This document shows, in pieces, positions 3,034 to 32,826 of a stretch of 64,000 bases of DNA (positions are counted from its first letter, which is position 1; the number at the start of each line of letters is the position of its first letter). Made by a program: the position numbers and the translations under genes. Source of the DNA: Candidatus Acidiferrales bacterium (lineage in GTDB: Bacteria; Acidobacteriota; Terriglobia; Acidiferrales; UBA7541); contig DATDIT010000021.1 of NCBI GenBank assembly GCA_036520875.1, forward strand, positions 3,149 through 67,148. Direction: 5' to 3'. The notes under the pieces are model-generated. The model saw only the letters and a list, made by a program, of their open reading frames with translations, was not told the DNA's origin and ran no database searches.

Positions 3034-3109
3034 ATGAACTAAGGGCTGTATTGGAAAGCGAACGTTCGCTGCAGGGCACTCAGGCGAAATCCGGGGGGAG
3101 AAGCAATCG

Positions 3110-4150
3110 GTGAACAAAAACGGCTATAGCATGCGGTCGGTCTTCAGTCTCTTTTCCTCCGACCTGGCCATTGATCTGGGGACGGCAAACACTCTGGTGT
3201 TTGCACGAAGCAAAGGCGTGGTGGTGAACGAGCCTTCGATCGTGGCTATCAATAAGACCAACGGAGAAGTAGTGGCCGTTGGCCGCGAGGCCAAGGAAAT
3301 GCTGGGGCGGACACCGGGCAACGTGGTCGCCATCAAGCCAATGAAGGATGGGGTGATCGCGGACTTCAAGGTGACAGAAAAAATGCTCACCTATTTCATC
3401 CAGAAGGCCCACAACCGGCGCGTACTGGTCCATCCACGCATCGTAATCGGCGTGCCCAGCGAAATCACACCAGTGGAAAAGCGTGCGGTGCAGGACTCCG
3501 CCTATCGCGCTCGGGCGAGCGAGGTGTACCTGGTGGAGCAAGCGATGGCCGCCGCGATCGGCGCCGGATTGCCTATCGAGGAGCCCTCGGGAAATATGGT
3601 AGTGGATATCGGCGGCGGCACCACGGATATCGCTGTAATCTCGATGAGCGGCATCGTCTATTCGCGTTCGGTGCGGGTGGCCGGAAACGAAATGGACGAA
3701 TCGGTGATGCACTATTTGAAGCGCAAGTACAATTTGCTGGTTGGCGAGCGGACTGCCGAGCAGATCAAGATAGAGATCGGGTCCGCCTATCCTCTTGAGA
3801 AGCCGATGACTCTCGAGGTGAAAGGCCGCAATCTAATCGAGGGCGTACCGCGCACAGTGACCATCGACGACAGCGAAATCCGCGAGGCACTTTCCGAGAA
3901 CATTTCGACCATCGTGAACGCGATCCGGGTGGCCCTGGAGCGCACACCGCCGGAACTTTCCGCCGATATAAGCGACCGCGGCATCGTGCTGACCGGAGGC
4001 GGCGCGCTGATCAAGAATCTCGATAAACGTATCCGCGAGGAAACGGGGCTGCCGGTTTCGATCGCTGATGATCCGCTAGCTTCGGTGGTGCTGGGCACCG
4101 GAAAAATGCTCAGCGACTTCAGGCTGCTGCGGCTGGTTTCGATCGATTGA
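3110..4150 (+). CDS. mreB: rod shape-determining actin homologue MreB
   Basis: Actin-fold motifs are present: DLAIDLGTANTLVF, NEPSIVAI and VVDIGGGTTDIAVIS. The gene is followed by mreC and mreD. GTG at 3110 has a GGGGGGAGAAG Shine-Dalgarno 7 nt upstream, and ATG at 3131 is an alternative start. Confidence 0.95.
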   Translation: MNKNGYSMRSVFSLFSSDLAIDLGTANTLVFARSKGVVVNEPSIVAINKTNGEVVAVGREAKEMLGRTPGNVVAIKPMKDGVIADFKVTEKMLTYFIQKAHNRRVLVHPRIVIGVPSEITPVEKRAVQDSAYRARASEVYLVEQAMAAAIGAGLPIEEPSGNMVVDIGGGTTDIAVISMSGIVYSRSVRVAGNEMDESVMHYLKRKYNLLVGERTAEQIKIEIGSAYPLEKPMTLEVKGRNLIEGVPRTVTIDDSEIREALSENISTIVNAIRVALERTPPELSADISDRGIVLTGGGALIKNLDKRIREETGLPVSIADDPLASVVLGTGKMLSDFRLLRLVSID

Positions 4151-4263: not shown

Positions 4264-5292
4264 ATGCTGGACGCATCCATTTCCCGTCATCGTCCACTGG
4301 CCTTGCTGGCTGGCCTAATCCTCTCGCAAGTATTGCTGCTGGCTTTCCAGATCAAGCGCGACCACGACGTGCGACTGATCCGGTATTGGACTGTGGAAGC
4401 CTTGATGCCGTTCGAGCGCGGAGGCACCTGGTCCTTTTCGAAGGTAGGAGACATTTGGGACGGATATATCGGTTTGCGGGGCACGCGCGCCGAAAACGCA
4501 AGTTTGCATGCGCGAGTCGATCAGTTGCAGATTCTCAACCGGCAACTGGGAAGCGAAGCCGCGGAAGCTCAACGCTTGAGCGCGCTTTTGGGTTTCCGGG
4601 AGACTCATGTGGAAGCTCCGATGCTTGCCGCACAGGTGATCGGGGCTAGTTCTGACGCGTCCTCAAATACGCTTTTCGTTAACCGAGGGCAACGGGATCG
4701 AGTGCGCCCCAATATGCCGGTGATCACTCCCGAGGGCATCGTCGGAAAAATTGTGGAGGTCTTTCCCGGTACCGCGCAGGTATTGCTCATTAACGACAGA
4801 GACAGCGGGGTGGGCGCTCTTCTCGAGGATTCCCGTACACACGGCGTGGTGAAAGGCAGCGGCGATCCCGAGCCGCGCCTCGACTATGTGGTGAACGACG
4901 AAAAAGTCCACGCAGGCGAATTGATTCTCACTTCCGGCGAAGACCGCATTTTCCCGAAGGGATTGCTGATCGGGTCGGTGAGCAGCGCGAACCCGGGAAA
5001 TCCATTTCAAGCGATTCGCGTCCGGACGGCTGCGCGGCTTGACCGTCTGGAAGACGTGCTGATCCTGCTCTCACAGCAGGAGCTTGTTCCGAAAAAGACG
5101 GCCGAATCGGGGGGCGCGAAGGAGAACCAGTCGAATTCGCAAGGTATCGTGCACCCCGTGACACCGCCGCCGGCTGCCGAGCGAACGTTGAAGAATCCTG
5201 TTCCTTCAAACGCCGTGAAACCGGCGGCGCCGAGCGGCGAGCAAACAGCGTCCCCAGCACCACCGCAAGCGGCGGCCGCCTCTCATAACTGA
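4264..5292 (+). CDS. mreC: rod shape-determining protein MreC
   Basis: It lies directly after mreB. It has an N-terminal TM helix, a coiled-coil (LHARVDQLQILNRQLGSEAAEAQRL) and MreC beta-barrel segments (MPVITPEGIVGKIVEV, SGVGALL, GELILTSG). The tail is Pro/Ala-rich. Confidence 0.85.
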   Translation: MLDASISRHRPLALLAGLILSQVLLLAFQIKRDHDVRLIRYWTVEALMPFERGGTWSFSKVGDIWDGYIGLRGTRAENASLHARVDQLQILNRQLGSEAAEAQRLSALLGFRETHVEAPMLAAQVIGASSDASSNTLFVNRGQRDRVRPNMPVITPEGIVGKIVEVFPGTAQVLLINDRDSGVGALLEDSRTHGVVKGSGDPEPRLDYVVNDEKVHAGELILTSGEDRIFPKGLLIGSVSSANPGNPFQAIRVRTAARLDRLEDVLILLSQQELVPKKTAESGGAKENQSNSQGIVHPVTPPPAAERTLKNPVPSNAVKPAAPSGEQTASPAPPQAAAASHN

Positions 5293-5293
5293 T

Positions 5294-5827
5294 ATGGAGT
5301 ACACGCTAAATTCCGGGGCGCAGGCACCATCGAGCATCGAGGTACACAAGTACTACGGCGGCACCGTGGTGCTTGCGGTTTTTCTGGCGCTGGTTTTTCA
5401 GGGCGTCTTTCACAAGTTCGGCCACTGGTCGGAGCTGGTGGATCTGCCGCTGTTGGTGACCATTTATTTCGGTGTGAGCCGGCGCAATCCCGTGAGCGGG
5501 ATGTTCCTGGGAGCGGCCGTCGGTATTCTTCAGGATGCCCTTAGCCACGACAATCCGATTGGCCTCTACGGGATCGCCAAGACTCTTGTGGGATACCTTG
5601 CTTCCTCGGTGGGAGCTCGCATTGACACCGAACATCCGGCCAGCCGCTTTGCTCTGATTTTCCTATTTTTTCATTTTCATCAAGTTGTTTTTGCAATATC
5701 GGAGCGCGTTCTGCTGAATCATCCTGCCCCCTTCTTTACTATGCCGCTGCTGCGCGATTCCTTGGTCACCGCTGCTGTAGGTGTGCTGATTTTCGCCGGT
5801 CTCGACCGTCTGCGACGTTCCTCCTAA
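5294..5827 (+). CDS. mreD: rod shape-determining protein MreD
   Basis: It starts 1 nt after the mreC stop. The 177-aa protein is polytopic and hydrophobic, and its position and size are typical of MreD. Confidence 0.75.
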   Translation: MEYTLNSGAQAPSSIEVHKYYGGTVVLAVFLALVFQGVFHKFGHWSELVDLPLLVTIYFGVSRRNPVSGMFLGAAVGILQDALSHDNPIGLYGIAKTLVGYLASSVGARIDTEHPASRFALIFLFFHFHQVVFAISERVLLNHPAPFFTMPLLRDSLVTAAVGVLIFAGLDRLRRSS

Positions 5828-5971
5828 GAGGAACAGCTTGCATATCGAGCGCACCTAGAGATTTTTTGCGAATACGAGGCCGTGGATGCATTAAAATCGA
5901 TGACCCCGGCCTATTTTACATTTCGAGCTTATTTCGTTGGTCCACAATTACGTAGTCGAGGAGCGCGTTAC

Positions 5972-8437
5972 ATGATTTTGCGGAAGCTCTCTGACCGCAG
6001 AATTCCTGGATGCCTGATGTGCTGCTTGCTTGGCGCAGGGTTGTTGTTGAGCGCCCGACCGGCTCAAGCGGATCCGGCGGCGGCCTTCGATTTGGTGGGG
6101 CCGAGCCTGGAAGTGAATGTAACACGGGCCGGCAAGACGCTTCCGATAGCGGATGTCGCAAGCCTCCAATCGGGTGACCGGCTTTGGATTCATCCGGATT
6201 TGCCGGAGAGCCAATCGGTTCACTACCTGCTGATCGTCGCTTTTCTGCGCGGCACGACGAACCCGCCTCCGGAAGATTGGTTTACGCGAGCAGAAACTTG
6301 GAATAAGAAAGTTCGCACTGAAGGAATCGTGGTGACGGTACCCCCTACTGCTCAGCAGGTTCTGATGTTTCTGGCTCCCGAGACAGGCGGCGATTTTTCT
6401 ACCTTGCGTTCCGCCGTTCGCGGGCGGCCGGGCACCTTCGTCAGAGCCTCGCAGGATTTGAATGAAGCGAGCCTGGAACGTTCACGGCTCGACAAGTACT
6501 TGAGCGAGGTTAAACAAACTTCCGAAAACGAACCCAAGGTGCTGCAGCAGAGGTCGGAAGCATTGGCGCGCACGCTGAACATCAAAGTCGATCAAGGATG
6601 CTTTTACAAGCCGGAGGAGGAGCAAGCTCCGTGTCTAACGCAAAATACCGATCAGCTTGTTCTGGATGATGGGCACACGCAGTCCATGGTAGCGGCCCTG
6701 ACGGCCGGTCCGTCGACAGATTTGATCGGAGCTGTGAGCGCGACGCCTCTTGCCGGAGGAGGATCCTTCAGCCCCTACGTGGGAGCAATTGTCGACATGG
6801 CCAGACTCATGGGGACTTTGCATACCGCCGAGTATCAGTATATTCCGGCGCTTGCTCTGCCCCAGCAAAGCCATTTGAATCTTCGACTAAATAGCCCGCC
6901 TTCGTTTCGGAATCCGAAATCCGTGCTGGTGATTGGGTTCCCGCCGGTGGAAGCGCCGCAGCTTCCTCCGCTGCGTGCCGTGAATCCGGATGAAGTTTTG
7001 TGTCTACAGAAAACGCAACTCGTTCTACCGGTCCAGGGCGCACCCTTAGTGTTTTCAACTGCGATTGCGCATGACTTTGTGTTGCGTGTACCGGTAGCGA
7101 CGGGGCAGACGATTGATCTCCCGGCGACAGCGGACGCCGCGCGCGGCGGCTTTGCAATCGACGCGCATGCCTTGCCGCCGGGAAAGCCAAATTCGCAGGT
7201 CAAAGGAACGCTTCGGGGCTTCTGGGGCTTCGATGCGTATGAGGGCCCGAGCTTCAATCTGCGCGCGGCCCGCGCCGGAGAGTGGACGATTTCTCCCGAG
7301 GACCGTAGCGCACTCATCGCGGACCGAGACGATACCCTTCACCTCAAATCGGAAGGCGCCGTGTGCGTGGATCAAGTGACTATTGAGAACGCGCAGGGGA
7401 AAAATCTGAGTGCCACATGGAAGATTGCAAAACCGGATGAGCTGGAGGTACGAGCGCCGCTAAAGGGCGAAGCGGCGGGCCCAGTCAAAGTGAAGGTGAA
7501 ACAATTTGGGATAGCCGATCCTGAGGAACTTGAGTTAGTTGCGTATTCCGAGGCCGCCCATCTCGATAACTTCACGATCAATACCGGCGACCGCCAGGGG
7601 GTGCTAACGGGAACCCGGCTGGACGAAGTGCAGAAGCTGAAGCTGGATGGAATGGAATTTGTGCCTGGGAAACTATCGCGCGCGGATCAGAAGGACGAAT
7701 TGCCGCTCTTGGCTTCGAATTCCAATATGCCGCTGGCGGCGCCACCCGACCAGAAGTTAGTCGCGTATGTTTCCCTCAAGGATGGCCGCGTCCTCAATTT
7801 GCAAACGACCATTGAGCCGGCCCGTCCTAAGGTGGATTTGATCGGGAAGAGCATTCAGACCGGCGCCAGCGGTTCGGCGATTCGCTTCGCGAGCCAAGAT
7901 CAACTTCCGCAAGACGGCCGGATGTCTTTTTTCGTGAAAACTGAAATCCCCGATAAGTTTCCGAGGACGGAAAAGATCGAGGTAGCCAACGAGGACGAGT
8001 CGTTCAGCACGTTGCTCAGCATCAGTGATGGCAACATCGTGTTGCAGGATTCACAAACGGTGCTTGGCATCGTAGATCCTCTTAAGAATTTTGGCCCTTC
8101 TGCATTTGGAGCGCTGCGCTTCCGCGCCGTCAGCGAGGATGGCACCAAGGGAGATTGGCAGCCGCTTGCGGATCTAGTGCGAGTCCCATCACTCAAGGAA
8201 ATTCGCTGCCCCGACAGCCCGGATAAACCTTGCAAGCTCAGCGGGACCAATCTCTTCCTGATTGACTCCGTTGCCTCGGATTCGCAATTCACGCACACAA
8301 CACCCGTACCGCTAGGTTTCGCCGACAGTTCGCTGACAGTTCCACGCCCAAACGGCACGCTCTTGTACATCAAGCTCCGCGACGATCCATCAACCGCGGA
8401 TGCCGTAGTCCTTCCGGTGCTACCGGATCAGCAGTAA
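5972..8437 (+). CDS. large secreted hypothetical protein (821 codons from the internal ATG)
   Basis: The long ORF is 5882-8437. ATG at 5972 has a GAGGAG Shine-Dalgarno 9 nt upstream and gives a signal-peptide-like N-terminus (MILRKLSDRRIPGCLMCCLLGAGLLLSARPAQA/DPAA). I recognise no domain. Confidence 0.6.
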   Translation: MILRKLSDRRIPGCLMCCLLGAGLLLSARPAQADPAAAFDLVGPSLEVNVTRAGKTLPIADVASLQSGDRLWIHPDLPESQSVHYLLIVAFLRGTTNPPPEDWFTRAETWNKKVRTEGIVVTVPPTAQQVLMFLAPETGGDFSTLRSAVRGRPGTFVRASQDLNEASLERSRLDKYLSEVKQTSENEPKVLQQRSEALARTLNIKVDQGCFYKPEEEQAPCLTQNTDQLVLDDGHTQSMVAALTAGPSTDLIGAVSATPLAGGGSFSPYVGAIVDMARLMGTLHTAEYQYIPALALPQQSHLNLRLNSPPSFRNPKSVLVIGFPPVEAPQLPPLRAVNPDEVLCLQKTQLVLPVQGAPLVFSTAIAHDFVLRVPVATGQTIDLPATADAARGGFAIDAHALPPGKPNSQVKGTLRGFWGFDAYEGPSFNLRAARAGEWTISPEDRSALIADRDDTLHLKSEGAVCVDQVTIENAQGKNLSATWKIAKPDELEVRAPLKGEAAGPVKVKVKQFGIADPEELELVAYSEAAHLDNFTINTGDRQGVLTGTRLDEVQKLKLDGMEFVPGKLSRADQKDELPLLASNSNMPLAAPPDQKLVAYVSLKDGRVLNLQTTIEPARPKVDLIGKSIQTGASGSAIRFASQDQLPQDGRMSFFVKTEIPDKFPRTEKIEVANEDESFSTLLSISDGNIVLQDSQTVLGIVDPLKNFGPSAFGALRFRAVSEDGTKGDWQPLADLVRVPSLKEIRCPDSPDKPCKLSGTNLFLIDSVASDSQFTHTTPVPLGFADSSLTVPRPNGTLLYIKLRDDPSTADAVVLPVLPDQQ

Positions 8438-8530
8438 CTTTTGGGCGCTGCATGTCGATGAGAGGGGAGCGCCTGCCCGCCCGAATGATATTATTTTCGT
8501 CGCGGGCAGGATTCGCTTCAGGGGACGGAT

Positions 8531-9268
8531 TTGACACAGTCTTCAACTCCAGCCGAGATCGCAATCGAGCACCGCCGCAGCACGCGCGCGGTGCTGGCTT
8601 TGCCAATAATCGTGAAGGGCGTCGATGCGCTGCATGAGCCATTCAGGGAAAATACGAATACCGTTATGGTGAGCTGCCATGGTTGCAAATATCAATCCAA
8701 GCATTACGTACCGCGAGGCTCGGTCGTCGAGCTCGAAATTCCCCGGAGCCGGCAAGGCGCGCCACGCCAAGTTTCAGGAAAGGTGATCTGGGTTCAGAGG
8801 CCGCGGAATACCCGGGAAGTTTTTCACATTGCAGTGGATTTCGAGGTCCCCGGGAATGTATGGGGCATTCAACCTCCTCCCGGAGATTGGTTTCCGGTTC
8901 CGGGCGATCCGGAGCCTGCAGCTCCCGACAAGCAGGATGCGACAGCTTCGTGGGACGAAAGTGAAATCGCATCCACATCCAGAACCACCCCAATAAAGGC
9001 TGAAGCCGCAATCACGGCCCGAGAAGCGAATACGATTGACGTGGAAATTGTTTCCGGCGATGCCAGGGTAAAGGCTGAGATTCACTCGGTAATCGAAAAC
9101 GCCGTGAAGGCGGCGGTGGCGCAGCTCGCCAAATCAATCGTGGATGAGGCGCGCGAAGAGCGAATTGCCCTAGCCGCACAGTTGGACGCCAAGGTGCAGC
9201 AGGCGGTGGAGGCTGCCATAGCGAAACTGCCTTCCCCACAGCGCAAAAAGTCCAAAAAGAAAAGCTAG
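8531..9268 (+). CDS. PilZ-like domain protein with acidic/coiled-coil C-terminus
   Basis: An N-terminal RxxxR element (EHRRSTRAVLALPIIVKG) is followed by a beta-barrel-like segment. The second PilZ signature (D/N-x-S-x-x-G) is degenerate (MVSCHG). The start codon is TTG. Confidence 0.5.
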   Translation: MTQSSTPAEIAIEHRRSTRAVLALPIIVKGVDALHEPFRENTNTVMVSCHGCKYQSKHYVPRGSVVELEIPRSRQGAPRQVSGKVIWVQRPRNTREVFHIAVDFEVPGNVWGIQPPPGDWFPVPGDPEPAAPDKQDATASWDESEIASTSRTTPIKAEAAITAREANTIDVEIVSGDARVKAEIHSVIENAVKAAVAQLAKSIVDEAREERIALAAQLDAKVQQAVEAAIAKLPSPQRKKSKKKS

Positions 9269-9286
9269 CCACGCAGCCCGATCTGT

Positions 9287-10846
9287 CTACCAGTTCGGAT
9301 TGCCGCACGTGAAGTTTGCAGCATCGCTGGTGCTGCCAGTCCCCTTATAGATGGCTACCTGAGGATGCGGACACAGCGGCCTCGTCTCATCGATCGCGCC
9401 CTTCGTCGAGTGTGATGCAACGATTTTTTCGGGTGCCGCGCCGTGCTCACGCCACTGTTCGAGGGCCGTAAGGGAATCAAACGTGTTCGGAGCGGCTCCG
9501 CCTTGGCAATGTTGCATGCCCGGCACAAAAAACAACCGCAGAAAATCCTGTGTCGCCTCCTGCCCGCCCATAGCGTGCTCGACGCTCTTGTAATAATTGA
9601 GACTGTTCTGGGGCATGATGGCTTGATCGGCCCAGCCGTGGTACATGATAATTTTTCCGCCATGCGATTTGAAAGCTTTCAAGTTCGGGTCAATGGCGTT
9701 CACGATTGAGCCGAGGCGAGAATCCGCCAGACGAGTGTCGCGATCTACATCAAACATGTGGAAATCCCAGTTAGGATTTGCGAAAACCATGTATTTGAAA
9801 AAACCTGTGCCGATGCTGATCGGCTCGGGACCGGCAGCCATCCCGCTCCATGCCAATTCGCTTCCCGGCTCGAAGCCCGGAAATATTTGCTTGCCATCGG
9901 AATACTTCGCCCCTGCGTAAATCATCTGTGCCGTCTTTACTTGCGGGGCTGTAAGACACGTGGGAGCATCCGCGCCCTCGCACTGAACGCTCTTGGGATC
10001 GAAAGGACAGCGAGTGGGATCTTCGATAATGCCGTCTGTTACGCCGTCTTTGGAATCGCAGGCAGCGATTGCGCCCGCGTGCAGCACAGCGTACTTGGAT
10101 GGCGGGATATAGGCTGGCGCATTCACTCCGTCTTTCAACGCGATCCAGCTGATGTACTCCGAACCCGCCTGAAGATGCGTGATATAGTTCGCTGGCGCGC
10201 CGGCGATGATGCCATCGTAATCATCCGGGTAACGTTGCGCCTCGGTGAGGCCTTGCTTGCCGCCAGTGGAGCAGCCGTTCCAATAGGAGAGTTTCGCGGC
10301 AGAGCCGTAAAATGCCTGGATGATCAGCTTGGAATCCACGGTCATTTCATGCACGGCGCGATACGACCAATCGACGAGTTTTTCGGGATGACCCATGGCC
10401 CAGCTTTCGTCGTTGCCAGACGCGTGGCCGGTATCAGTGCCGGCAGTGGCATAGCCCCTCTTCATGGCCGTTTCCAGCGCGGTGTAGCCGATTTGCCCGA
10501 TAAAGCCGCCATTGCCGACGGCTTCGAACTTTCCGTTCCAGTTCGCCGCCGTAGGAAGCCACACTTCAAAGCTGATATGCGAATCGCTCGTGGGCGTGGA
10601 AAATGCGATTACTCGGCAAAAAGGCTGGGAGATACTAACATCGCGTCCTGGCCCGGCCGGCCCTGCGGGAATTGGAATCACCAAGTCCGGCGGCGGATTG
10701 ATTGGCGTGGCGGAGATCACGGTCACATTGGGAATCTTAAGAGACGTCAGACTGTCGCAGGACTGCTGTGCGGCAACCCGTCCCGGAGCCATCCCCAAAA
10801 CCACCAGGCAAACCAAACAGAAAAAGAGCGTGCGCCAGCGCCTCAT
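9287..10846 (-). CDS. secreted tannase / feruloyl esterase family alpha/beta hydrolase (paralogue 1)
   Basis: The family hallmark GCSTGGKQGL is present, as are AGAPANYITHL and the many conserved Cys residues of this family. ATG at 10846 has a GGAGG Shine-Dalgarno 7 nt upstream and gives the signal peptide MRRWRTLFFCLVCLVVLGMAPGRVAAQQ. The ORF-track start at 10975 is probably too far upstream. Confidence 0.85.
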   Translation of the reverse strand: MRRWRTLFFCLVCLVVLGMAPGRVAAQQSCDSLTSLKIPNVTVISATPINPPPDLVIPIPAGPAGPGRDVSISQPFCRVIAFSTPTSDSHISFEVWLPTAANWNGKFEAVGNGGFIGQIGYTALETAMKRGYATAGTDTGHASGNDESWAMGHPEKLVDWSYRAVHEMTVDSKLIIQAFYGSAAKLSYWNGCSTGGKQGLTEAQRYPDDYDGIIAGAPANYITHLQAGSEYISWIALKDGVNAPAYIPPSKYAVLHAGAIAACDSKDGVTDGIIEDPTRCPFDPKSVQCEGADAPTCLTAPQVKTAQMIYAGAKYSDGKQIFPGFEPGSELAWSGMAAGPEPISIGTGFFKYMVFANPNWDFHMFDVDRDTRLADSRLGSIVNAIDPNLKAFKSHGGKIIMYHGWADQAIMPQNSLNYYKSVEHAMGGQEATQDFLRLFFVPGMQHCQGGAAPNTFDSLTALEQWREHGAAPEKIVASHSTKGAIDETRPLCPHPQVAIYKGTGSTSDAANFTCGNPNW

Positions 10847-23866: not shown

Positions 23867-24421
23867 TTAGGCGGACGCGCTCGTTTGTGCCGCGCGCGGA
23901 TATCCCGCGCTGGCCATTACTTCTTCGCTCTGCGCCCGGTGCCGGTCGCAATGTGCCGCAACCAGCAGCAGCCACTGATACAGATCCAGTTCCCCGAATA
24001 CGCGATGCGCGAAGAAGTGCTGCCTCAAATCCACAGTGGTGGTTGCTGCAAACTCGTGCGTCCGCTGCCGCACTCGCTCAAATTCCTTCAATAGTTCCTC
24101 GTGCCCCCATCGGCCGGTCGGTGCGAGCATTTCCGGAGCTTGGAAACGGGTCACGCGGCCCGCCACGTCGGCGACCAGCGCGTCGTCGTTCATCGCAGCG
24201 CTCTTCGAGGGATCGGGGCCACTCTCAAGTGTCTTTTGAATGAGGCTGAGTACCCGCTCTTCCACGGCCGCGATGTGCTCCACGCATTCGGCGACCGACC
24301 AGCGGCCCGGCTCAGGGCGATAATGCCACTGTTCGCGCGAGAGGCCATCTCCCATCCGGTGCAGTTGTTCGCGGGATTCGGTCAAATTCTTCAAAACGGC
24401 TTCGCGTTCTCCTGGCGTCAT
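23867..24421 (-). CDS. DinB-family (DinB_2-like) metal-dependent protein
   Basis: It has a four-helix-bundle His triad context (WSVAECVEHIAAVE ... LLVAAHCDRH). ATG at 24421 is preceded by a GGAGGAG Shine-Dalgarno. Confidence 0.75.
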   Translation of the reverse strand: MTPGEREAVLKNLTESREQLHRMGDGLSREQWHYRPEPGRWSVAECVEHIAAVEERVLSLIQKTLESGPDPSKSAAMNDDALVADVAGRVTRFQAPEMLAPTGRWGHEELLKEFERVRQRTHEFAATTTVDLRQHFFAHRVFGELDLYQWLLLVAAHCDRHRAQSEEVMASAGYPRAAQTSASA

Positions 24422-24569
24422 AGCACTCCTCCGACGAGGCAGTTTATCGTGATCCAAGTGGCGCCATCATAGCCGAATTTGCCGTTTCTGGCCCACTAAA
24501 AGCTCCGAGTTAGAAGGAGCGCATGCGGCAAACTCAAAGGGTTTTTGGGGCGATTTGGATCAGAAATAA

Positions 24570-25694: not shown

Positions 25695-26150
25695 TTAGCC
25701 CAAGGGCGGGGAAAAATCCGTCAACTTCAGAAACGTCGAATCGACTTTCTCGACTAATTTCCCATTCGCTTCCGATTTCGCTTTCACGCTCTGCCATTCC
25801 GGATCGTCCTGGAAGGCCTTCCAGTTGGCTGCCGCCGCTTCCCGGCTTGGATGCTCCAGCATGTAAAAGAAGGTAGTGCTTTTCACTGGTTCATCGAGCG
25901 CCGTCCAATACGCCACGCTCTTGATTCCATGTTTCGCAAAAAGGCTCATTGTGTGGTCGCGGAAACGCGCCACCAGGTCGTCAAGCTTTCCGGGAGACAC
26001 GTGATAAATGCGCAATTCGTAGACCGCAGTTGATCCAGGCACCGCGCCACCTCGCTCTTCCGCCGAAGCGAACGCCAACTTCATCGCCTCCGCTGCCCCG
26101 CCGGGCAACAGCGCGAGCGGGACTACGCCCAGCAATGTTCGCCTCTTCAT
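25695..26150 (-). CDS. NIPSNAP-family protein with signal peptide
   Basis: It has a signal-like N-terminus MKRRTLLGVVPLALLPGGAAEA. The NIPSNAP core is YELRIYHVSPGKLDDLVARFRDHTMSLFAKHGIKSVAYWT. Confidence 0.7.
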   Translation of the reverse strand: MKRRTLLGVVPLALLPGGAAEAMKLAFASAEERGGAVPGSTAVYELRIYHVSPGKLDDLVARFRDHTMSLFAKHGIKSVAYWTALDEPVKSTTFFYMLEHPSREAAAANWKAFQDDPEWQSVKAKSEANGKLVEKVDSTFLKLTDFSPPLG

Positions 26151-26272: not shown

Positions 26273-26899
26273 ATGCCGGGGTTCTTACAGAAGATTTTGC
26301 CGCGCGAGCAGTCCTTCTTTCGGATGTTTACGAACCAGGCGGAAAACGTCCAAGCTGGGGCGCAGGCCATGGTCGACATGTTGCAAAACTACAGCGACCC
26401 GGCGGCGGGAGCCAAGCGGGTGGAGACGTACGAGCATGCGGGGGACACGATCACGCATGACATCATGAAAAAGCTAAACCAGACGTTCATCACGCCCTTC
26501 GACCGGGAAGACATCCACGAACTGGCGAGCCGGATCGACGATGTAATCGACCTGGTGGATGCGGCGGCATCGCGCCTGATCATCTATCGAGTGAAAACGA
26601 TCCGTCCGGGGGTGCTGGAGCTCGCAACGACCGTCCGCGACGCCACGGCGCAGATCGTGGCAGCAGTGCGCGTGCTCGAAGAAGAGGACCACATCCTCGA
26701 TCATTGCATTGAAATCAACCGCCTGGAAAATGTGGCGGACCGCCAATGCCAGGATCTGATCGCCCAGCTCTTCGAGCAAGAAAAAGACCCCGTGCAGATC
26801 ATCAAGTGGAAAGAGATCATCGAGACTCTCGAGTTCGCCACGGACAAATGCGAAGACGTGGCGAACGTGATCGAGACCGTCATACTGAAGAACGCCTGA
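26273..26899 (+). CDS. DUF47-family (PhoU-like) phosphate transport accessory protein
   Basis: This is a 208-aa helical protein with TPFDREDIHELASRIDDVID and KWKEIIETLEFATDKCEDVANVIE. It is immediately followed by a PiT transporter, which is the classic gene pair. Confidence 0.85.
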   Translation: MPGFLQKILPREQSFFRMFTNQAENVQAGAQAMVDMLQNYSDPAAGAKRVETYEHAGDTITHDIMKKLNQTFITPFDREDIHELASRIDDVIDLVDAAASRLIIYRVKTIRPGVLELATTVRDATAQIVAAVRVLEEEDHILDHCIEINRLENVADRQCQDLIAQLFEQEKDPVQIIKWKEIIETLEFATDKCEDVANVIETVILKNA

Positions 26900-26914
26900 G
26901 CGGAAACCGCCTCC

Positions 26915-27910
26915 GTGAATCCATTCCGCCTTCTTGTCGTGATTGTCGTCATCAGCCTGGCATTCGACTTCACCAATGGGTGGCACGACGCGGCGAGTTC
27001 GATCGCCACGGTTGTCTCTACGCGCGTCCTCCGACCATTCTGGGCCGTCCTCTGGGCGGCCTTCTGGAACTTTGTCGCGCCCCTGACTTTCGGCACGGCC
27101 GTGGCGGCGACGGTCGGCAAGGGCCTGGTCCACCTCGAAATGGTGAATCAGTACGTGTTGCTGGCGGGACTGCTGGGAGCGATCGTCTGGAACTACGCGA
27201 CGATACGCCTCGGCATTCCGTGCAGTTCGTCGCATGCCTTGATGGGAGGCTACGGAGGCGCGGCGATTGCCGCCGCCGGATTTCGAGCCATCATCGTGGG
27301 CGGGTGGGTGAAACCTGTAATTTTCATCTTGATTGCTCCCGTGCTGGGTCTGGTTATGGGTGTTCTGGTGACCGTGGCGACGAGTTGGATCGTACGGAAG
27401 CAGGCGCCGTATCGAGTGGACTCATGGTTTCGCCGGCTCCAACTCATTTCGGCCGCCGGTTTTAGCTTCAGCCATGGCACGAACGACGCGCAAAAGAGCA
27501 TGGGAATCATTACGGCTGCACTGGTGACGAGCGGGTTGATTCCAAGCTACAAAGTGCCGAATTGGGTGATCATTTGTTGCGCGTTGGCAATGGCCGGGGG
27601 GACGATGGCGGGCGGCTGGCGCGTGGTCAAAACGATGGGTCAGCGAATCACAAAGCTTACGCCATTTGGCGGTTTTGCGGCGGAGACGTCGGCGGCGGTC
27701 ACGCTGATCTCGACGGCCGCAGCGGGAATCCCGGTGAGCTCGACGCACGTGATCACGGGCGCGATTTCAGGCGTCGGGGCATCACGACGACTTACGGCCG
27801 TGCGCTGGGGCGTTACGCGGCAGATCCTATGGGCCTGGCTTCTGACGATCCCCGGAGCCGGGCTGATGGGGGCCCTCTTTCACTTTCTGTTCTTAACCTG
27901 GGTGCGATGA
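26915..27910 (+). CDS. inorganic phosphate transporter, PiT family
   Basis: The duplicated PiT signature is present (FTNGWHDAASSIATVVSTR and FSHGTNDAQKSMGII). The protein is polytopic. Confidence 0.9.
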   Translation: MNPFRLLVVIVVISLAFDFTNGWHDAASSIATVVSTRVLRPFWAVLWAAFWNFVAPLTFGTAVAATVGKGLVHLEMVNQYVLLAGLLGAIVWNYATIRLGIPCSSSHALMGGYGGAAIAAAGFRAIIVGGWVKPVIFILIAPVLGLVMGVLVTVATSWIVRKQAPYRVDSWFRRLQLISAAGFSFSHGTNDAQKSMGIITAALVTSGLIPSYKVPNWVIICCALAMAGGTMAGGWRVVKTMGQRITKLTPFGGFAAETSAAVTLISTAAAGIPVSSTHVITGAISGVGASRRLTAVRWGVTRQILWAWLLTIPGAGLMGALFHFLFLTWVR

Positions 27911-28026: not shown

Positions 28027-29103
28027 CTATTTGTGCGGCCTTGCGACTACGAATGGGTCGAGGGTGAGCGGGAGTTCGAATGGGAGCGTTTCCGGCGCCT
28101 CGCAGACGGTGTCGCTGCATTGCTGGTAACGAACCTGACCCGATAGCACGGTTTTACCCTCTTCGAGCGGAAATTTCAGCAGCAGTGAACCTGAGCCTCG
28201 GAATGAGCCGGTGTAGGCGGGAATCGTTTCCTCGAGCGCAGCTAGCCGCATGGGCGCAGCCGATGGAAGTTCAAAGGATTGGCGGATGATTTTCGGATCT
28301 TCGAATGCTACCGACGCAGCTGCGTAAGCTTGGGGCAAAGGGGAGCCGTAGACGTGCCATCCGGGTTGGAGCGTAAATTTCGCAAAGAAGCCGATTTGCT
28401 GGCCGGCGAAAGCTTTTGCGGCAGAGAGTCCAATCTCTATTGTGAGCGCGCCGCTTCGCAGAGTCACGGTAGGGGCACCATCGGCTGCAACTCCAAATTC
28501 TCGAAGAATGACGGCGGACGCCGCGACTCGATGCTGGTAGTTGGGCACGAAATACTTGCGGACGACGACGCCGTCTGGAGCGATCAAATACTCGACGGGA
28601 TGCGGAACGCCGTGCGCGCGGAGGCCGGGAGCGATGTTGGTGTTCAAGATGCCGAAGCTGCGGATGACAGCGCTATCCCGATCGGACAGTAGAGGAATTT
28701 TAATGTGATACTTCTCCGCGAAACGCTGGAGAGTCTCCTGGGAATCGTAGCTGACGGCGGCGATGCGGACGCCTTCCCTTTCGACGATCGAACGCGATTG
28801 CTCCAACTCGACGAGTTGGGAACGGCAGTACTGTCACCAATCGGCGCTTCGATAAAAAACGAGAAGCAGGCCATTGGGACCGGCGAGATTTGCGAGTGAT
28901 CTCGAAACGCCTTCCTGGTCTAGGAGAGAGAAATCGGGGACGCGCTCTCCAGGCTCGGGGCCCGTGGTGTAGCGATCGTTGGTGGCATTGATGTGCCTGA
29001 CGTGCAATTCGGGGGGAACGTGCTCTCCGGCGGCGCGAAGGCGTCCGAACTCCCGCATGATCGCAGCTTTTTCGGCGAGATCTTCCGGTATATGGATTGG
29101 CAT
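28027..29103 (-). CDS. candidate selenoprotein: AhpC/TSA-type redoxin domain with U-x-x-C motif fused to a DsbD-N-terminal-like domain (in-frame TGA at 28836-28834)
   Basis: ORFs 28834-29103 and 28027-28806 are in one frame, separated by a single TGA. The joined sequence reads PDFSLLDQEGVSRSLANLAGPNGLLLVFYRSADW-TGA-QYCRSQLVELEQ...AAVSYDSQ...PLLSDRDS. The TGA sits where this family has the first Cys of WCPxC. The C-terminal half has GWHVY ... VRYQQCSDTVCEAP, which resembles the DsbD alpha/DsbC-corrector domain. A broken pseudogene is the alternative. Confidence 0.6.
28803..28819 (-). promoter_or_regulatory. candidate bacterial SECIS hairpin
   Basis: The mRNA forms CCAACUC-GUC-GAGUUGG, a perfect 7-bp stem. 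The stem starts 14 nt after the UGA, and the apical loop begins with GU at nt 22 after the UGA. This geometry resembles fdhF-type SECIS elements. Confidence 0.45.
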
Positions 29104-29184
29104 TGGCTATCCTTGATAACTAATTTCTAGCAGCCACTATACTACTGCCCGCGCGGCTAAGGTTGGATTGACAAAGTAGATTCT

Positions 29185-30741
29185 CTACGGGGATTTGCAG
29201 ACGAAATTCGCGGCGTCGTCAATGCTGCCTGAACCTTTGTATGCGGCGACTTGTGGGTAGGCGCAGATCGGACGCGTGCGATCCACGACGCCATTGGCAC
29301 GATGAGAGGCGAGGAGTTGATTGGGTGCCTCGCCCTTCTCAAACCACTGCGCGAGAGTGCCGATGGCGTCGAATGTGTTGGGACCTTCCCCGCCGCCGCA
29401 GTGCCCCATCCCCGGAAACATGAACAGGCGGATCGAATCGGTTGCGGCGCTTCCCATGGTCTTCAGCACGCTTTCGTAATAATGGATGGTGTTGAGCGGG
29501 GAGATATTCGGGTCACTCCACCCGTGATACATGAGCAACTTTCCGCCACGGCCGAAAAATTCTTTGAGATTCGGATCCATGGCGCTGGTCCCGCCGTTGT
29601 CCACTTTGTCTGCAATGGCGACGTCGCGATCGAGATTGAGAGTTCTAAAGTCCCAGTTCGGATCGCTGAAGGTTACGTACTTGAAGCCGTCGGTGGCGAA
29701 TGAGAGCGGCTGCGGACCGGCGTGAATCCCCCAACCAAGTTCACTTCCGGGCTCGAGTCCTGGGTAGATTTCCGTGCCCGTGCGCGGATTCTTTGCGGGT
29801 GAGTAAAGCATGCGGGCCGTTTGCACCTGCGGCGCCGTGAGGCAAGACGGCTCGTCACCGCCCTCGCACGTGAGAACTTTTGGATCGAAATGGCAGCGCA
29901 AGGGATCGCCGATGAGCCCGTCTTTGAGGCCGTCGAGCGCGTCACAGGCGTCCAGGGCGGCTTTGTGGATTAGTGGGTATTTGCTCGGCGGGATATAGCT
30001 GGATTCGTCTTTGTGAATCGCCTGCGCAATCGAGAGGGACCATGAATAAAGGTGCGTTCTATTGTTCGCAGGCGCGCCGGCGATGATGGCGTTGTAATCG
30101 GCTGGATAGCGCTGAGCTTCGGTGAGTGCCTGCCGGCCGCCGGTTGAGCATCCGTTCCAATAAGAGATGGAGGGCGCCTGGCCATAAAAGGCTGCAACAA
30201 TTGACTTGGCGGCGACGGTCATTACATGCACCGAGCGATAGGCGAAATCAGTCATCTTCTCGGGGTGACCGAGAGCAAAACTTCCACCGCTTGTCGCATG
30301 ACCTGTATCGGTGCTGGCGGCGGCGTAACCTTCCTCGACACCATGCGCCAAGGCGGTGTAACTGATGACGCCGGCCCAGCCACCGTTGCCAACCGATTGG
30401 AGCTTGCTATTCCACCCTGATGCTGGCAGCCATACTTCGATTTTGATATCGGAATCGCTGGAGGGCGTCAAAGTAGCCGTTACCCGGCAGAACTCGGGCA
30501 GGTGGGCGAAGGGAGATCTGGTGGGTGCTGCGGCTGCTTCGGGCCTCGCTGGTCCAGGCGGCGAAAAGGCTCCGGCGGCTACGTCCGCGGCCGATGTAAC
30601 TCTGGTGTTCGGCAGCGAAAGATGGGCCAGGCTTTCGCACGGGGCAGCGGTTGCTGGCGAATTGCCGATCGCGAGCGTGGCAGCCAAGACTAAGAAAAAT
30701 GCGAGAAGAATGGAACGATGCGCAGCGGCCCTTGCAAACAT
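29185..30741 (-). CDS. secreted tannase / feruloyl esterase family alpha/beta hydrolase (paralogue 2)
   Basis: GCSTGGRQAL and AGAPANNRTHL are present, and the protein is collinear with the 9287-10846 protein throughout. ATG at 30741 has a GGAGGAGG Shine-Dalgarno and gives the signal peptide MFARAAAHRSILLAFFLVLAATLAIGNSPATAA. Confidence 0.85.
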   Translation of the reverse strand: MFARAAAHRSILLAFFLVLAATLAIGNSPATAAPCESLAHLSLPNTRVTSAADVAAGAFSPPGPARPEAAAAPTRSPFAHLPEFCRVTATLTPSSDSDIKIEVWLPASGWNSKLQSVGNGGWAGVISYTALAHGVEEGYAAASTDTGHATSGGSFALGHPEKMTDFAYRSVHVMTVAAKSIVAAFYGQAPSISYWNGCSTGGRQALTEAQRYPADYNAIIAGAPANNRTHLYSWSLSIAQAIHKDESSYIPPSKYPLIHKAALDACDALDGLKDGLIGDPLRCHFDPKVLTCEGGDEPSCLTAPQVQTARMLYSPAKNPRTGTEIYPGLEPGSELGWGIHAGPQPLSFATDGFKYVTFSDPNWDFRTLNLDRDVAIADKVDNGGTSAMDPNLKEFFGRGGKLLMYHGWSDPNISPLNTIHYYESVLKTMGSAATDSIRLFMFPGMGHCGGGEGPNTFDAIGTLAQWFEKGEAPNQLLASHRANGVVDRTRPICAYPQVAAYKGSGSIDDAANFVCKSP

Positions 30742-30922
30742 GGCGACCTCCTCCTGGAAATTCTTCCAACGAGCAACGGGAGATCTGATGCTGCTTTTGA
30801 CCACCTGCCACCCTGAAAGGACGGCGCTACATTAAACTTCGGAGGAAGGCGCAAAAGTATACGTGACGCCAGAAAGTCTTGCAGCGCGGCGTAGCACTGC
30901 GAGCCGCACTGACCTATTTGAC

Positions 30923-31177
30923 CTATTGCTCGCTAACCTGTTTCGCGTCGTTCGTGGTTTCAGTTGCCACTGCACCATCGAGGACTTGGGCCTTAATTGT
31001 GAGGCCATTCTTCGCGGCATCGAAGCGAACTTTGCGATCCATCGTTTTCCACACGTCGCGAAGCCCCTTTCCAATGCCGACGGGCAGACTACCTGCTTCC
31101 ACACGCACTTTACCGGCGACCGTCGGCCCACTGTTGCGATCTTGATATTCGATCTCGACTTGAATCGTTTTGCTCAT
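30923..31177 (-). CDS. small hypothetical protein (84 aa)
   Basis: ATG at 31177 is preceded by an AAGGGAGA Shine-Dalgarno. The sequence is MSKTIQVEIEYQDRNSGPTVAGKVRVEAGSLPVGIGKGL.... I recognise no family. Confidence 0.45.
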   Translation of the reverse strand: MSKTIQVEIEYQDRNSGPTVAGKVRVEAGSLPVGIGKGLRDVWKTMDRKVRFDAAKNGLTIKAQVLDGAVATETTNDAKQVSEQ

Positions 31178-31487
31178 CAGTCTCCCTTTTTGGTTGTGAT
31201 GTGTGCCGAGCACATTCATCGGCTTATGCGAATGGCGGCTGGAATCGGCTTCGGCGCGCTAAATTCTATTGGCACCTTGCGGGTTCATACGACGAGAGCG
31301 CGGGCTCCTTTTTCGCAATGCGGGAACAAATGAAAAGAGAGGCGTCTGGCTAAGCTCACAAGCGCCCCTCTAGTTTACGTCTAATTATCCGTGTACCTCA
31401 GGGATCACCTCCTTCTCGGCAGGAACGCCGATACAACCGATTATTATTGTAAACGATGAGCGGTCGAATTTTGAAGAGAAGTTCAGG

Positions 31488-32735
31488 CTAATTTTGGACC
31501 GCCAGCTTAATTTCCGCCGTGTCGTCTTTTAGTTCGAGGGCTGTGCCGAAAGGCTTTGAGGCGTCCGCGAGGCGCTGAAGGATATAGCCTGCTCTGGCGC
31601 CGGTGGCGGGCGACGGCAAGCCGCGCGTATCGAGGAACTGGTTGTTGGCGTACTCGTTATGAACATCGGGCTGACCCTGGCCCAGGTTGTTCAAGACAAT
31701 GGGGCGGAACGAAATCGATTGCAACTTCTTTCCCTGAAATTGGACGTAGGCGACGGCGCTCTCCCAATTCATCGGTTCATCGATGTAGGTGAGCGTGGGG
31801 GGGACATTGTAGATGAAATTGCCCAGATCGTAGAAAATTGGGCGGCCGTGATAAATCTCAACGCCGTGAAGCAGAGGCGCGCCATGCATCACCACGATGT
31901 CCGCGCCCGCGTCAACTTCCGCATGCGTCCACTTCCTTAGCCAATCATTGGGAGCGAGCCGCTCCGGCATTCCTTCGGTGAAAATCGTGGAGAAGGAGTG
32001 ATTGCCGAAGACGTGGTTATGCTGGTAGACGATCACGAGGTCCGCGTGCTGGCTGGCGTAGTGAATGCTTTGAAGGATGCGCTGCGAATCCTCCTGATTG
32101 GGCGTGTTCGGAGGCGCGCCAGGCAGATCGGCAGTGGCTTCATTTTCCTTGTCGCCGGCCTCGATGCGAAGCTCATTCACTCCCGGGCGGTTCGCCGTGG
32201 CGCTTGCATCTGGCGAAATCAAGCCTGACGCGCTCGCTATCAGGGCAATCGTGCCCTTTGGCGTGCGCAGGTAACCCGGCGCAACAGCTTCGGCCACGTT
32301 GTTTCCAGTTCCGGCGTAAACGATTTTCCGGCGGTCGGCTTCACGGATGGTGTTCTGAATGCCCACGACCTTCAGATCGAATGCGTGGTTGCCGGCGAGG
32401 GATAACAAGTTAAAACCGAATGCCTTCAGGGCATCGAGCGCTTCAGGCGGAGTGAGAAAGCCCCTTCCCTCATGAACTGTCTGGCCCTTTTCGGCGACCG
32501 CGGCTTCGAGGTTGGTGAAGATGACGTCACCCTTTAGCAGACCTTTTATTACTGGCACAGCGGCCGGTGCGGTGGAGCGAATGTCTGACCGGATCATCGA
32601 CTGCCCCGCCAAGGTGATGGTTATCGCGGGCGACTGCGGCCGCGCGGCAGCACCGATCGCGCACGCAATGGCGAACGGAAGCGCGAGACGCGCTGCTCTA
32701 GGCAATAGCCGGTCAGGCTTCGAGGTTGTTGCCAT
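31488..32735 (-). CDS. CapA-family (PGA_cap) metallophosphatase-like protein, secreted
   Basis: Supporting segments are TLAGQSMIRSD, GDVIFTNLEAAV, LSLAGNHAFD and VVMHGAP. The N-terminus is a signal/anchor. The start is taken at ATG 32735, and 32762 is an alternative. Confidence 0.8.
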   Translation of the reverse strand: MATTSKPDRLLPRAARLALPFAIACAIGAAARPQSPAITITLAGQSMIRSDIRSTAPAAVPVIKGLLKGDVIFTNLEAAVAEKGQTVHEGRGFLTPPEALDALKAFGFNLLSLAGNHAFDLKVVGIQNTIREADRRKIVYAGTGNNVAEAVAPGYLRTPKGTIALIASASGLISPDASATANRPGVNELRIEAGDKENEATADLPGAPPNTPNQEDSQRILQSIHYASQHADLVIVYQHNHVFGNHSFSTIFTEGMPERLAPNDWLRKWTHAEVDAGADIVVMHGAPLLHGVEIYHGRPIFYDLGNFIYNVPPTLTYIDEPMNWESAVAYVQFQGKKLQSISFRPIVLNNLGQGQPDVHNEYANNQFLDTRGLPSPATGARAGYILQRLADASKPFGTALELKDDTAEIKLAVQN

Positions 32736-32826
32736 ATGCGCGATGCTGCCGCGTTGAATCATGCCCGTATGTCAGTTTCCGAGAATACGGTTTATCGGGA
32801 ACCGTGCGTTCTGGCAAGTGTTTGTT

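Follow-up and report, generated by a model that had tools for sequence, protein, structure and literature searches.

A probable selenoprotein gene encoding a redoxin fused to an nDsbD-like domain in Candidatus Acidiferrales and other soil bacteria

The locus and its reading frame

A stretch of 64,000 nucleotides from Candidatus Acidiferrales bacterium (contig DATDIT010000021.1, positions 3,149 to 67,148), referred to here as the window, carries on its minus strand a reading frame from 29103 to 28027 that encodes a redoxin joined to an nDsbD-like domain. Translation shows the frame to be open except for one TGA at 28836-28834, as the original prediction, made from the sequence alone, had stated. 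This stretch of the minus strand is very probably one gene in which the UGA is decoded as selenocysteine (Sec). Its basic features, with their basis in brackets, are the following.

28027..29103, minus strand: the complete proposed selenoprotein gene, 358 codons including Sec-90, with the terminal TAG at 28029-28027 (a single frame with one internal TGA; full-length Cys homologues; the ratio of nonsynonymous to synonymous substitution rates, dN/dS)
28834..28836, minus strand: UGA codon 90, predicted to be read as selenocysteine, the first residue of W-U-Q-Y-C (aligned Cys; conserved TGA; the U of a Desulfotalea selenoprotein)
29110..29114, minus strand: Shine-Dalgarno-like AAGGA, 6 nt 5' of the ATG (direct sequence reading)

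An in-frame TAG at 29109-29107, just 5' of the ATG start codon, fixes the N-terminus and excludes a longer one. Around the TGA the peptide reads VFYRSADW-UGA-QYCRSQLVELEQSR. The list of open reading frames (ORFs) cuts the gene at this codon into 28834-29103 (89 aa) and 28027-28806 (259 aa, with a TTG start), which bears out the expectation that standard ORF calling would miss the fusion. That this is a real selenoprotein gene, with Sec decoding, which standard callers have overlooked can be held with high confidence.

The GC content is 58%. TGA ends 18 of the 53 ORFs in the window (these were called greedily by length and some may be spurious), and UGA is therefore an ordinary stop in the source organism, not a reassigned codon. 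There are approximately 75 positions in the window where an in-frame TGA has at least 60 open codons on each side; inspection by eye found a likely redox motif at none of them except the TGA of codon 90.

Conservation of the in-frame TGA

A homologue search with the joined protein, given a C at position 90, returned 780 homologues. Among the best 120, approximately 100 have a length of 253-259 aa and represent the downstream ORF alone, at 70-99% identity; a cluster look-up gave no names for such truncated homologues. The full-length matches (357-377 aa) are all at most 68% identical to the joined protein, and none of the best 120 that exceeds 68% identity is full length. The full-length Cys homologues among them align with the joined protein from end to end. 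It had been claimed that the TGA falls on the redox Cys, and alignment to Cys-containing homologues had been suggested as a check; indeed, the TGA column is Cys in all 10 full-length homologues aligned, where it is the N-terminal Cys of the CxxC inside an invariant W-C-[QR]-Y-C-R. Five genomic forms also have Cys at the TGA.

The genomic comparison used one genome per GTDB species and gave 79 loci, 77 of which cover the codon. Of these 77 species-level genomes, 72 have TGA, their proteins being 31-92% identical to that of the window, and TGC or TGT is found in five (L052, L055, L056, L058, and L080). The loci span the Acidobacteriota (Bryobacterales, Acidiferrales, Terriglobia, Korobacteraceae, and Vicinamibacteria) and the Binataceae. 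In most of the TGA loci the frame is open for at least 89 codons up to the TGA and for about 268 beyond it, with frameshifts or a shortened ORF on one side in a minority (L006, L035, L044/L046, L067, L070, L071, and L073). Most of the disrupted copies are from metagenome-assembled genomes (MAGs) of the MFD series, presumably long-read assemblies that are prone to indel errors; the disruptions could be assembly indel errors or real decay.

Purifying selection is apparent on both sides of the TGA, with dN/dS of 0.11 for codons 1-89 and 0.16 for codons 91-358 (Nei-Gojobori method, 35 ungapped orthologues, 292 pairs). That the ratio is low in each half indicates that both are translated in one frame. 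Decay of the gene in relatives, which had been named as an observation that would speak against a selenoprotein, is not seen, most frames being intact and under this selection.

Two of the MAGs each contain two diverged paralogues on different contigs, both with the TGA: MFD04434.bin.1.11 (L024 and L042) and MFD04463.bin.1.321 (L014 and L053).

A hairpin 3' of the UGA

The original prediction had also placed a hairpin like the bacterial selenocysteine insertion sequence (bSECIS) 3' of the UGA.

28803..28819, minus strand: SECIS-type hairpin CCAACUC-GUC-GAGUUGG, 7 bp, loop GUC (pairing in the TGA forms; covariation; bSECIS constraints)

The hairpin begins 14 nt after the UGA. Its loop is separated from the UGA by 21 nt, the loop G being the 22nd nucleotide. 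Set beside the published constraints on bSECIS elements (PMC13188914), it compares as follows.

Apical loop: published 3-9 nt; this element 3 nt (5 nt in variants)
Upper stem: published 4-16 bp; this element 6-7 bp
G within the first two loop positions: required; this element has G at position 1
UGA-to-loop spacing: published 16-37 nt; this element 21 nt
Minimum free energy (MFE): published at most -7.5 kcal/mol; this element -7.6 kcal/mol bare and -10.8 kcal/mol in a 42-nt context

The element is within the published limits on every line. Its conservation was assessed in 72 TGA sequences, from 71 loci and the window, and in the five Cys forms. None of the 72 TGA forms has a break in stem pairs 2-6, the stem being 6-7 bp, and the loop opens with G in all 72 and with GU in 71. 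In 37 of the 72 the closing pair is G-G, which leaves a 5 nt loop, GGUCG. Pair 4 is A-U in 49 of the TGA forms, G-C in 21, and G-U in two, and it is broken in none. One side of the pair is the third position of a Gln codon (CAA/CAG) and the other the first position of a Leu codon (UUG/CUG); both are synonymous sites, and the protein sequence therefore cannot account for the co-variation of pair 4. On a neighbour-joining tree, no fewer than four separate clades show the switch between A-U and G-C (the L039-L067 group, L071, the Binataceae, and one inside a distant secreted subfamily), with the G-U intermediates in L005 and L062.

The Cys forms retain 7, 6, 6, 4, and 3 of the 7 pairs, so that the hairpin is weakened in four out of five, and pair 4 is broken in three out of five. 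The Glu codon is GAG in all 72 TGA forms; it is GAA in two of the five Cys forms. For covariation the hairpin scores 0.140 and shuffled alignments 0.074, with none of 500 shuffles reaching 0.140, and when the register is slid 9-49% of cells are paired against 91% in the true register, with covariation of at most 0.086. The claim of a SECIS-like hairpin is therefore sustained, both by the published constraints and by compensatory synonymous changes in the TGA forms. As for the perfect 7 bp pairing that had been pointed out in the window, its geometry and conservation stand, while the pairing does not distinguish the hairpin when single sequences are folded.

Selenocysteine genes beside orthologues

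Among the fetched loci, those of two Bryobacterales species (L031 and L028) contain matches to SelA and SelB in local tblastn searches, the queries being the Solibacter usitatus sequences from the supplement of PMC1794560. In both, selD (NF002098, 513 bits, cutoff 299) shares a strand with the TGA orthologue and ends 38 nt 5' of it. Beside these, in divergent orientation, are selA (TIGR00474, 582 bits, cutoff 268) and the first part of selB (TIGR00475, 199 bits across the 115 residues present before the locus ends). At least two genomes with the TGA form therefore encode Sec machinery on the same contig as the orthologue, which in these loci probably shares a transcription unit with selD. ARAGORN reported no tRNA, and thus no tRNA-Sec, in these two 7-kb loci. 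S. usitatus itself is a user of Sec, with SelA, SelB, and a Sec-containing FdhA (Zhang et al. 2006, PMC1794560), and a database search found abundant homologues of SelA in MAGs annotated as Bryobacteraceae and Acidobacteriia.

The compact sel cluster lies at positions 1-2963 of both loci, on the Bryobacterales MAG contigs CAVPZQ010000013.1 (L031) and CAVVZG010000074.1 (L028). Its order is selB and selA on one strand, then selD divergently, and then, 38 nt on, the redoxin-nDsbD gene. The SelD is a Cys form (GGGCGCK), and the SelA is only approximately 42% identical to that of S. usitatus.

Domains and active site

The joined protein is made up of the following parts, all on the minus strand.

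28954..29103, minus strand: N-terminal extension of about 50 residues, two predicted helices, no signal peptide (conservation; AlphaFold2, AF2; sequence)
28534..28953, minus strand: thioredoxin-fold redoxin domain (AhpC-TSA/Redoxin), residues ~51-190 (Pfam; PDB profile; Foldseek)
28825..28827, minus strand: Cys93, putative resolving Cys of U-x-x-C (invariance; profile alignment to 2cx3 and ResA)
28030..28491, minus strand: predicted C-terminal immunoglobulin-like domain of nDsbD/ScsB type, residues 205-358 (PF11412; AF2; Foldseek)
28084-28422, minus strand: Pfam DsbD_N match, residues 228-340 (PF11412)
28102..28119, minus strand: Cys329-x4-Cys334 (QQCSDTVCEAP), second putative redox centre (invariance)

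In the N-terminal extension, K12, A13, M16, F19, R23, G26, and A40-D43 are invariant in the alignment of full-length homologues, and the AF2 model of a Cys homologue has helices at 9-24 and 31-41. The N-terminus has no apparent signal peptide, in agreement with what had been noted from the window; it is charged and helical and without a hydrophobic stretch, for which reason the protein of the window clade is probably cytoplasmic.

The full-length model is that of the Cys homologue P0002, 68% identical to the window protein (predicted local distance difference test, pLDDT, 88.5; predicted template modelling score, pTM, 0.85). In this model two helices at the N-terminus are followed by a thioredoxin fold and a beta-sandwich, and the Foldseek matches are BcpB and ResA, with target-normalized TM-scores (TMt) of 0.72-0.76. 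The top structural matches of the redoxin model include PrxQ. By sequence, the redoxin domain matches PF00578 AhpC-TSA at residues 51-181 (E 1.5e-27) and PF08534 Redoxin (E 4.6e-15), and a PDB profile search matches BCP and ResA. None of the NCBIfam models reaches its cutoff, be it BCP (60 against 140 bits), SelL_rel_redox (49 against 120), or the selenoprotein models WAxxUGC_long (25.7 against 300 bits) and redoxin_TUGYCR (20 against 100).

That the C-terminal half is like the N-terminal domain of DsbD, as originally proposed, is supported by Pfam and by the predicted fold. The PF11412 DsbD_N match has a score of 27.7 bits, above the gathering cutoff of 25, and extends from profile position 7 to 113 of 119; the same domain is precomputed for most homologues. 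An AF2 model of just the last 154 residues of the window protein has a pLDDT of 89.9, and 11 of the top 15 Foldseek matches of this model are nDsbD or ScsB (E 6e-5 to 4e-4), the best being nDsbD 1vrs, 6dps, 3pfu, and 1z5y and ScsB 6c29 (query-normalized TM-score, TMq, 0.64; root mean square deviation, rmsd, 3.1). A PDB sequence-profile search with this domain did not find nDsbD and gave spurious spike-protein matches only. Cys329, Cys334, Q327, and P337 (Q-x-C-x4-C-x2-P) are invariant in 28 aligned C-terminal domains, including those of the distant secreted subfamily.

This distant subfamily (L074-L080 together with L078; 31-39% identity) has the same redoxin and nDsbD-like architecture, with match regions at ~3001-3990 (1565-2500 in L078), and the motif W-U-P-[FY]-C, with Cys in L080. 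Its N-termini are signal-peptide-like, and there are thus secreted and non-secreted versions of the fusion.

Across the subfamily the active-site motif is W-U-[QRP]-[YF]-C. In the profile alignment to ResA, WUQYC aligns with WCEPC, which places the Sec at the N-terminal, nucleophilic position of a thioredoxin-type CxxC. In the alignment to BCP (2cx3) it is Cys93 that is at the peroxidatic Cys, with Sec90 at the conserved Thr/Ser. The original prediction had put the Sec on the nucleophilic Cys of a redoxin: it is indeed on the first Cys of the CxxC, but this is not the peroxidatic position, being three residues before it. The P-x3-T/S-x2-Cp motif and the catalytic Arg of peroxiredoxins are not found in the alignment to 2cx3; the position of the peroxiredoxin Pro is Arg/His and that of the catalytic Arg is the invariant Pro169 of an H-P motif. 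Thioredoxin-like oxidoreductases have a cis-Pro at the place that corresponds to this motif, of which the His-Pro would be the equivalent. Given the ResA-type CxxC match and the loss of the peroxiredoxin Pro, Thr, and Arg, the active site looks like that of a disulfide oxidoreductase and not that of a peroxidase.

A selenoprotein with a peroxidase (peroxiredoxin) redoxin domain, to which the nDsbD-like domain would be a built-in reductant or an unrelated module, is the alternative that survives best. The best Pfam and NCBIfam names, AhpC/TSA and BCP/PrxQ, are those of peroxidases, BcpB and PrxQ are among the top structural matches, and Cys93 aligns with the peroxidatic Cys of BCP. It is nevertheless unlikely, since the signature is lost at its Pro (to Arg/His) and at its Thr/Ser (to Sec), the catalytic Arg has given way to a cis-Pro-like loop, W-C/U-x-x-C aligns with the ResA motif, and the NCBIfam peroxiredoxin models are all far below their cutoffs, as for the BCP model above.

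Alternative readings of the UGA

Several observations weigh against Sec decoding, or against the fusion as described. There is no selA, selB, selC, or selD in the 64-kb window, nor, by ARAGORN, a tRNA of any kind. No Rfam model matches the hairpin, either at the gathering threshold over the whole window or at a permissive E-value over 28700-28900, a negative that is uninformative. The bare hairpin has a z-score of -4.5, but in its 42-nt context z is -1.2, which is not distinctive, and the 76-nt context folds into a different MFE structure, also with z -1.2. Since single-sequence folding does not single the hairpin out, its support is comparative and not thermodynamic. The Cys form in L052 has a perfect hairpin. 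The SQLVELE peptide is itself conserved, so that coding constraint explains part of the hairpin conservation, and the independent evidence for the hairpin is the synonymous-site pattern only. Lastly, an nDsbD-like domain in the cytoplasm is atypical.

The lack of Sec genes in the window and the short, in context thermodynamically unremarkable hairpin would also suit a UGA that is read through without selenium, by a near-cognate Trp or Cys tRNA or by programmed read-through. This is very improbable. The residue aligned with the UGA in homologues is a redox-active Cys, the classic Sec/Cys pair, and a CxxC with Trp in place of its nucleophile would be inactive. The bSECIS geometry, the GU loop start in 71 of the 72 TGA forms, the co-variation, and the weakening in four of the five Cys forms also argue against it, as does the orthologue directly 3' of selD and beside selA and selB in two genomes.

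The reading of the TGA as a true stop, in a decaying gene or between two independent small genes of 89 and 259 aa, can draw on the like split in the databases (the 253-259 aa entries) and on the few relatives with frameshifts or shortened ORFs, which are mostly the presumably indel-prone MFD-series MAGs, but it is effectively refuted by the comparative data and has next to no probability left: the identical TGA is at the identical codon in 72 species genomes down to 31% identity, dN/dS is low for both halves in one frame, the nine codons from the TGA to the TTG "start" are conserved as protein, with Y92, C93, R94, and L97 invariant, and a split would sever the thioredoxin fold at the active-site helix (AF2 model of the Cys homologue).

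A proposed mechanism

With Sec decoding as the preferred reading, UGA-90 would be recoded by the standard bacterial route, in which the hairpin with its G-U loop start would recruit SelB-GTP-Sec-tRNA(Sec) to the ribosome. Sec90 may then be the attacking nucleophile on substrate disulfides, or on another electrophile, and may resolve with Cys93 as a selenenylsulfide. The Cys329/Cys334 pair could swap reducing equivalents with the Sec90-Cys93 centre, in cis or between subunits, in what would be a covalent version of the partner pairs nDsbD-CcmG (1z5y) and nDsbD-cDsbD (1vrs). The protein would accordingly act as a thiol(selenol)-disulfide oxidoreductase and not as a peroxidase. The two-centre relay is tentative and somewhat short of an even chance. 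Selenium incorporation, localisation, the direction of the relay, and the substrate form the inferred part of this explanation; what the analysis shows is the single frame, the Sec/Cys alignment, the conservation and selection, the covariation of the hairpin, the folds of the domains, and the sel genes next to two of the orthologues.

It has further been considered that the fusion may be a self-contained cytoplasmic two-centre selenosulfide/disulfide relay, with an nDsbD-like domain at work outside the periplasm, and may have a role in selenium metabolism itself, and not in general redox defence, for example by reducing or delivering selenium species to selenophosphate synthetase. The proposal comes from the orthologue being apparently co-transcribed with selD in some lineages, and it is a speculative one that is probably wrong.

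Comparison with known systems

The gene product is classed as a fusion variant of the peroxiredoxin-like (Prx-like) thiol:disulfide oxidoreductase selenoproteins. These belong to PF00578, have UxxC or UxxU, and have been "predicted with high confidence" (PMC13188914), with members in Desulfotalea and Geobacter (Zhang et al. 2006, PMC1794560). The Desulfotalea protein is 25% identical to the window protein (E 2e-14), and its U falls on the TGA. In common are the AhpC-TSA-type thioredoxin fold, the motif W-U-x-Y-C (WUQYC here, WUPYC in Desulfotalea), an N-terminal helical extension without a signal, and the existence of Cys-containing homologues. The known members, however, are single-domain proteins of ~210-230 aa from Deltaproteobacteria, whereas the window protein has 358 aa, adding an nDsbD-like domain of ~150 residues and a second Cys pair, and its subfamily is from soil Acidobacteriota and Binataceae. 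Identity is low at about 25%, and every NCBIfam selenoprotein model stays below its cutoff for this protein.

ResA, TlpA, and CcmG (DsbE) share the fold (Foldseek TMt 0.73-0.76, rmsd ~2.2 A), W-C-x-x-C, and a cis-Pro-type loop. They are membrane-anchored or secreted single-domain Cys proteins, whereas the protein of the window clade lacks a signal peptide, has Sec as its predicted nucleophile, and has its nDsbD-like partner as a fusion in cis. The reductant of CcmG in E. coli is nDsbD, and the structure of that pair (PDB 1z5y) is among the matches of the C-terminal domain.

With the N-terminal domains of DsbD and ScsB the C-terminal domain has in common the Pfam DsbD_N match, the immunoglobulin-like beta-sandwich (predicted here), and a conserved Cys pair followed by a Pro near the C-terminal strands. 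Sequence identity is 13-16%. The Cys pair of E. coli nDsbD is Cys103/Cys109, and the spacing in the window protein is C-x4-C. Unlike nDsbD and ScsB, the domain is not joined to a DsbD/ScsB membrane domain, and in its clade it is apparently cytoplasmic. The UGC-containing selenoproteins of the TlpA family and other redoxins (cd02966) also have a thioredoxin fold with Sec in a CxxC-type motif; matches to these are weak, and the motif of the window subfamily is W-U-[QRP]-[YF]-C.

Sec in place of Cys in CxxC redoxins is already well known. A limited literature search found no description of a redoxin-nDsbD fusion as a selenoprotein, which is no proof of novelty. The value of the locus is in the annotation and in an unusual cytoplasmic redoxin-nDsbD fusion, and not in a new principle. 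A conserved subfamily of probable selenoproteins from at least 72 species-level genomes is systematically split in public protein sets, where it is recorded as an 89-aa orphan and a 253-259-aa "hypothetical / AhpC-TSA" fragment, and no NCBIfam model captures it. The hosts are abundant soil Acidobacteriota and Binataceae, and corrected annotation would improve selenoproteome counts for soil bacteria. What is unusual in the fusion is that a Sec-containing ResA/CcmG-like redoxin would be attached to the very domain from which redoxins of this kind receive electrons in the DsbD system, even though the protein has no export signal. It offers a compact, testable model for intramolecular selenosulfide-disulfide exchange, and the 72 TGA and five Cys genomes provide a natural Sec/Cys pair for asking what Sec contributes in CxxC oxidoreductases.

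The gene neighbourhood

The genes around the selenoprotein gene in the window are these.

29185-30804, minus strand: Tannase-family gene (profile match, E 2.9e-116), 81 nt 5' of the selenoprotein gene
31488-32762, minus strand: PGA_cap gene, farther upstream on the same strand
26273-27910, plus strand: PhoU_div (DUF47) and PHO4 phosphate-transporter pair, downstream on the opposite strand
25695-26150: NIPSNAP gene, beyond the PhoU_div/PHO4 pair

The tannase gene had been offered as context for the selenoprotein gene. It is indeed 81 nt upstream on the same strand, but it is not a conserved partner, being upstream in only about 7 of the 79 loci. No neighbour is conserved across the 79 loci, and there is no conserved membrane partner of DsbD/ScsB type near the gene among them. 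Elsewhere the context includes cytochrome c genes, insertion-sequence and integrase genes, and housekeeping genes, and it differs again in L002, L082, and L083. The only functionally suggestive linkage is that to selD, selA, and selB in L028 and L031.

In the case of L082 (contig_37651, 5462-9466), integrase fragments, an IS91-type Zn_Tnp gene, and an rve transposase gene are directly 5' of the orthologue. Together with the absence of conserved neighbours, these mobile-element genes hint that the gene moves as a stand-alone unit. In the syntenic loci L001 and L003 the NIPSNAP gene comes directly after the selenoprotein gene, and the PhoU_div/PHO4 pair of the window therefore looks like an insertion.

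Redox and stress genes recur near some copies, none of them conserved across the loci. L001 has a catalase and a cytochrome b gene downstream of its copy (4414-6068), and the window has a DinB_2/mycothiol-S-transferase-like gene at 23867-24457 on the minus strand. Between the PGA_cap and tannase genes of the window there is an ORF of 98 aa (30923-31219, minus strand) with no Pfam match; L001 has a gene call of 84 aa at the corresponding place, and the ORF may therefore be a real small gene.

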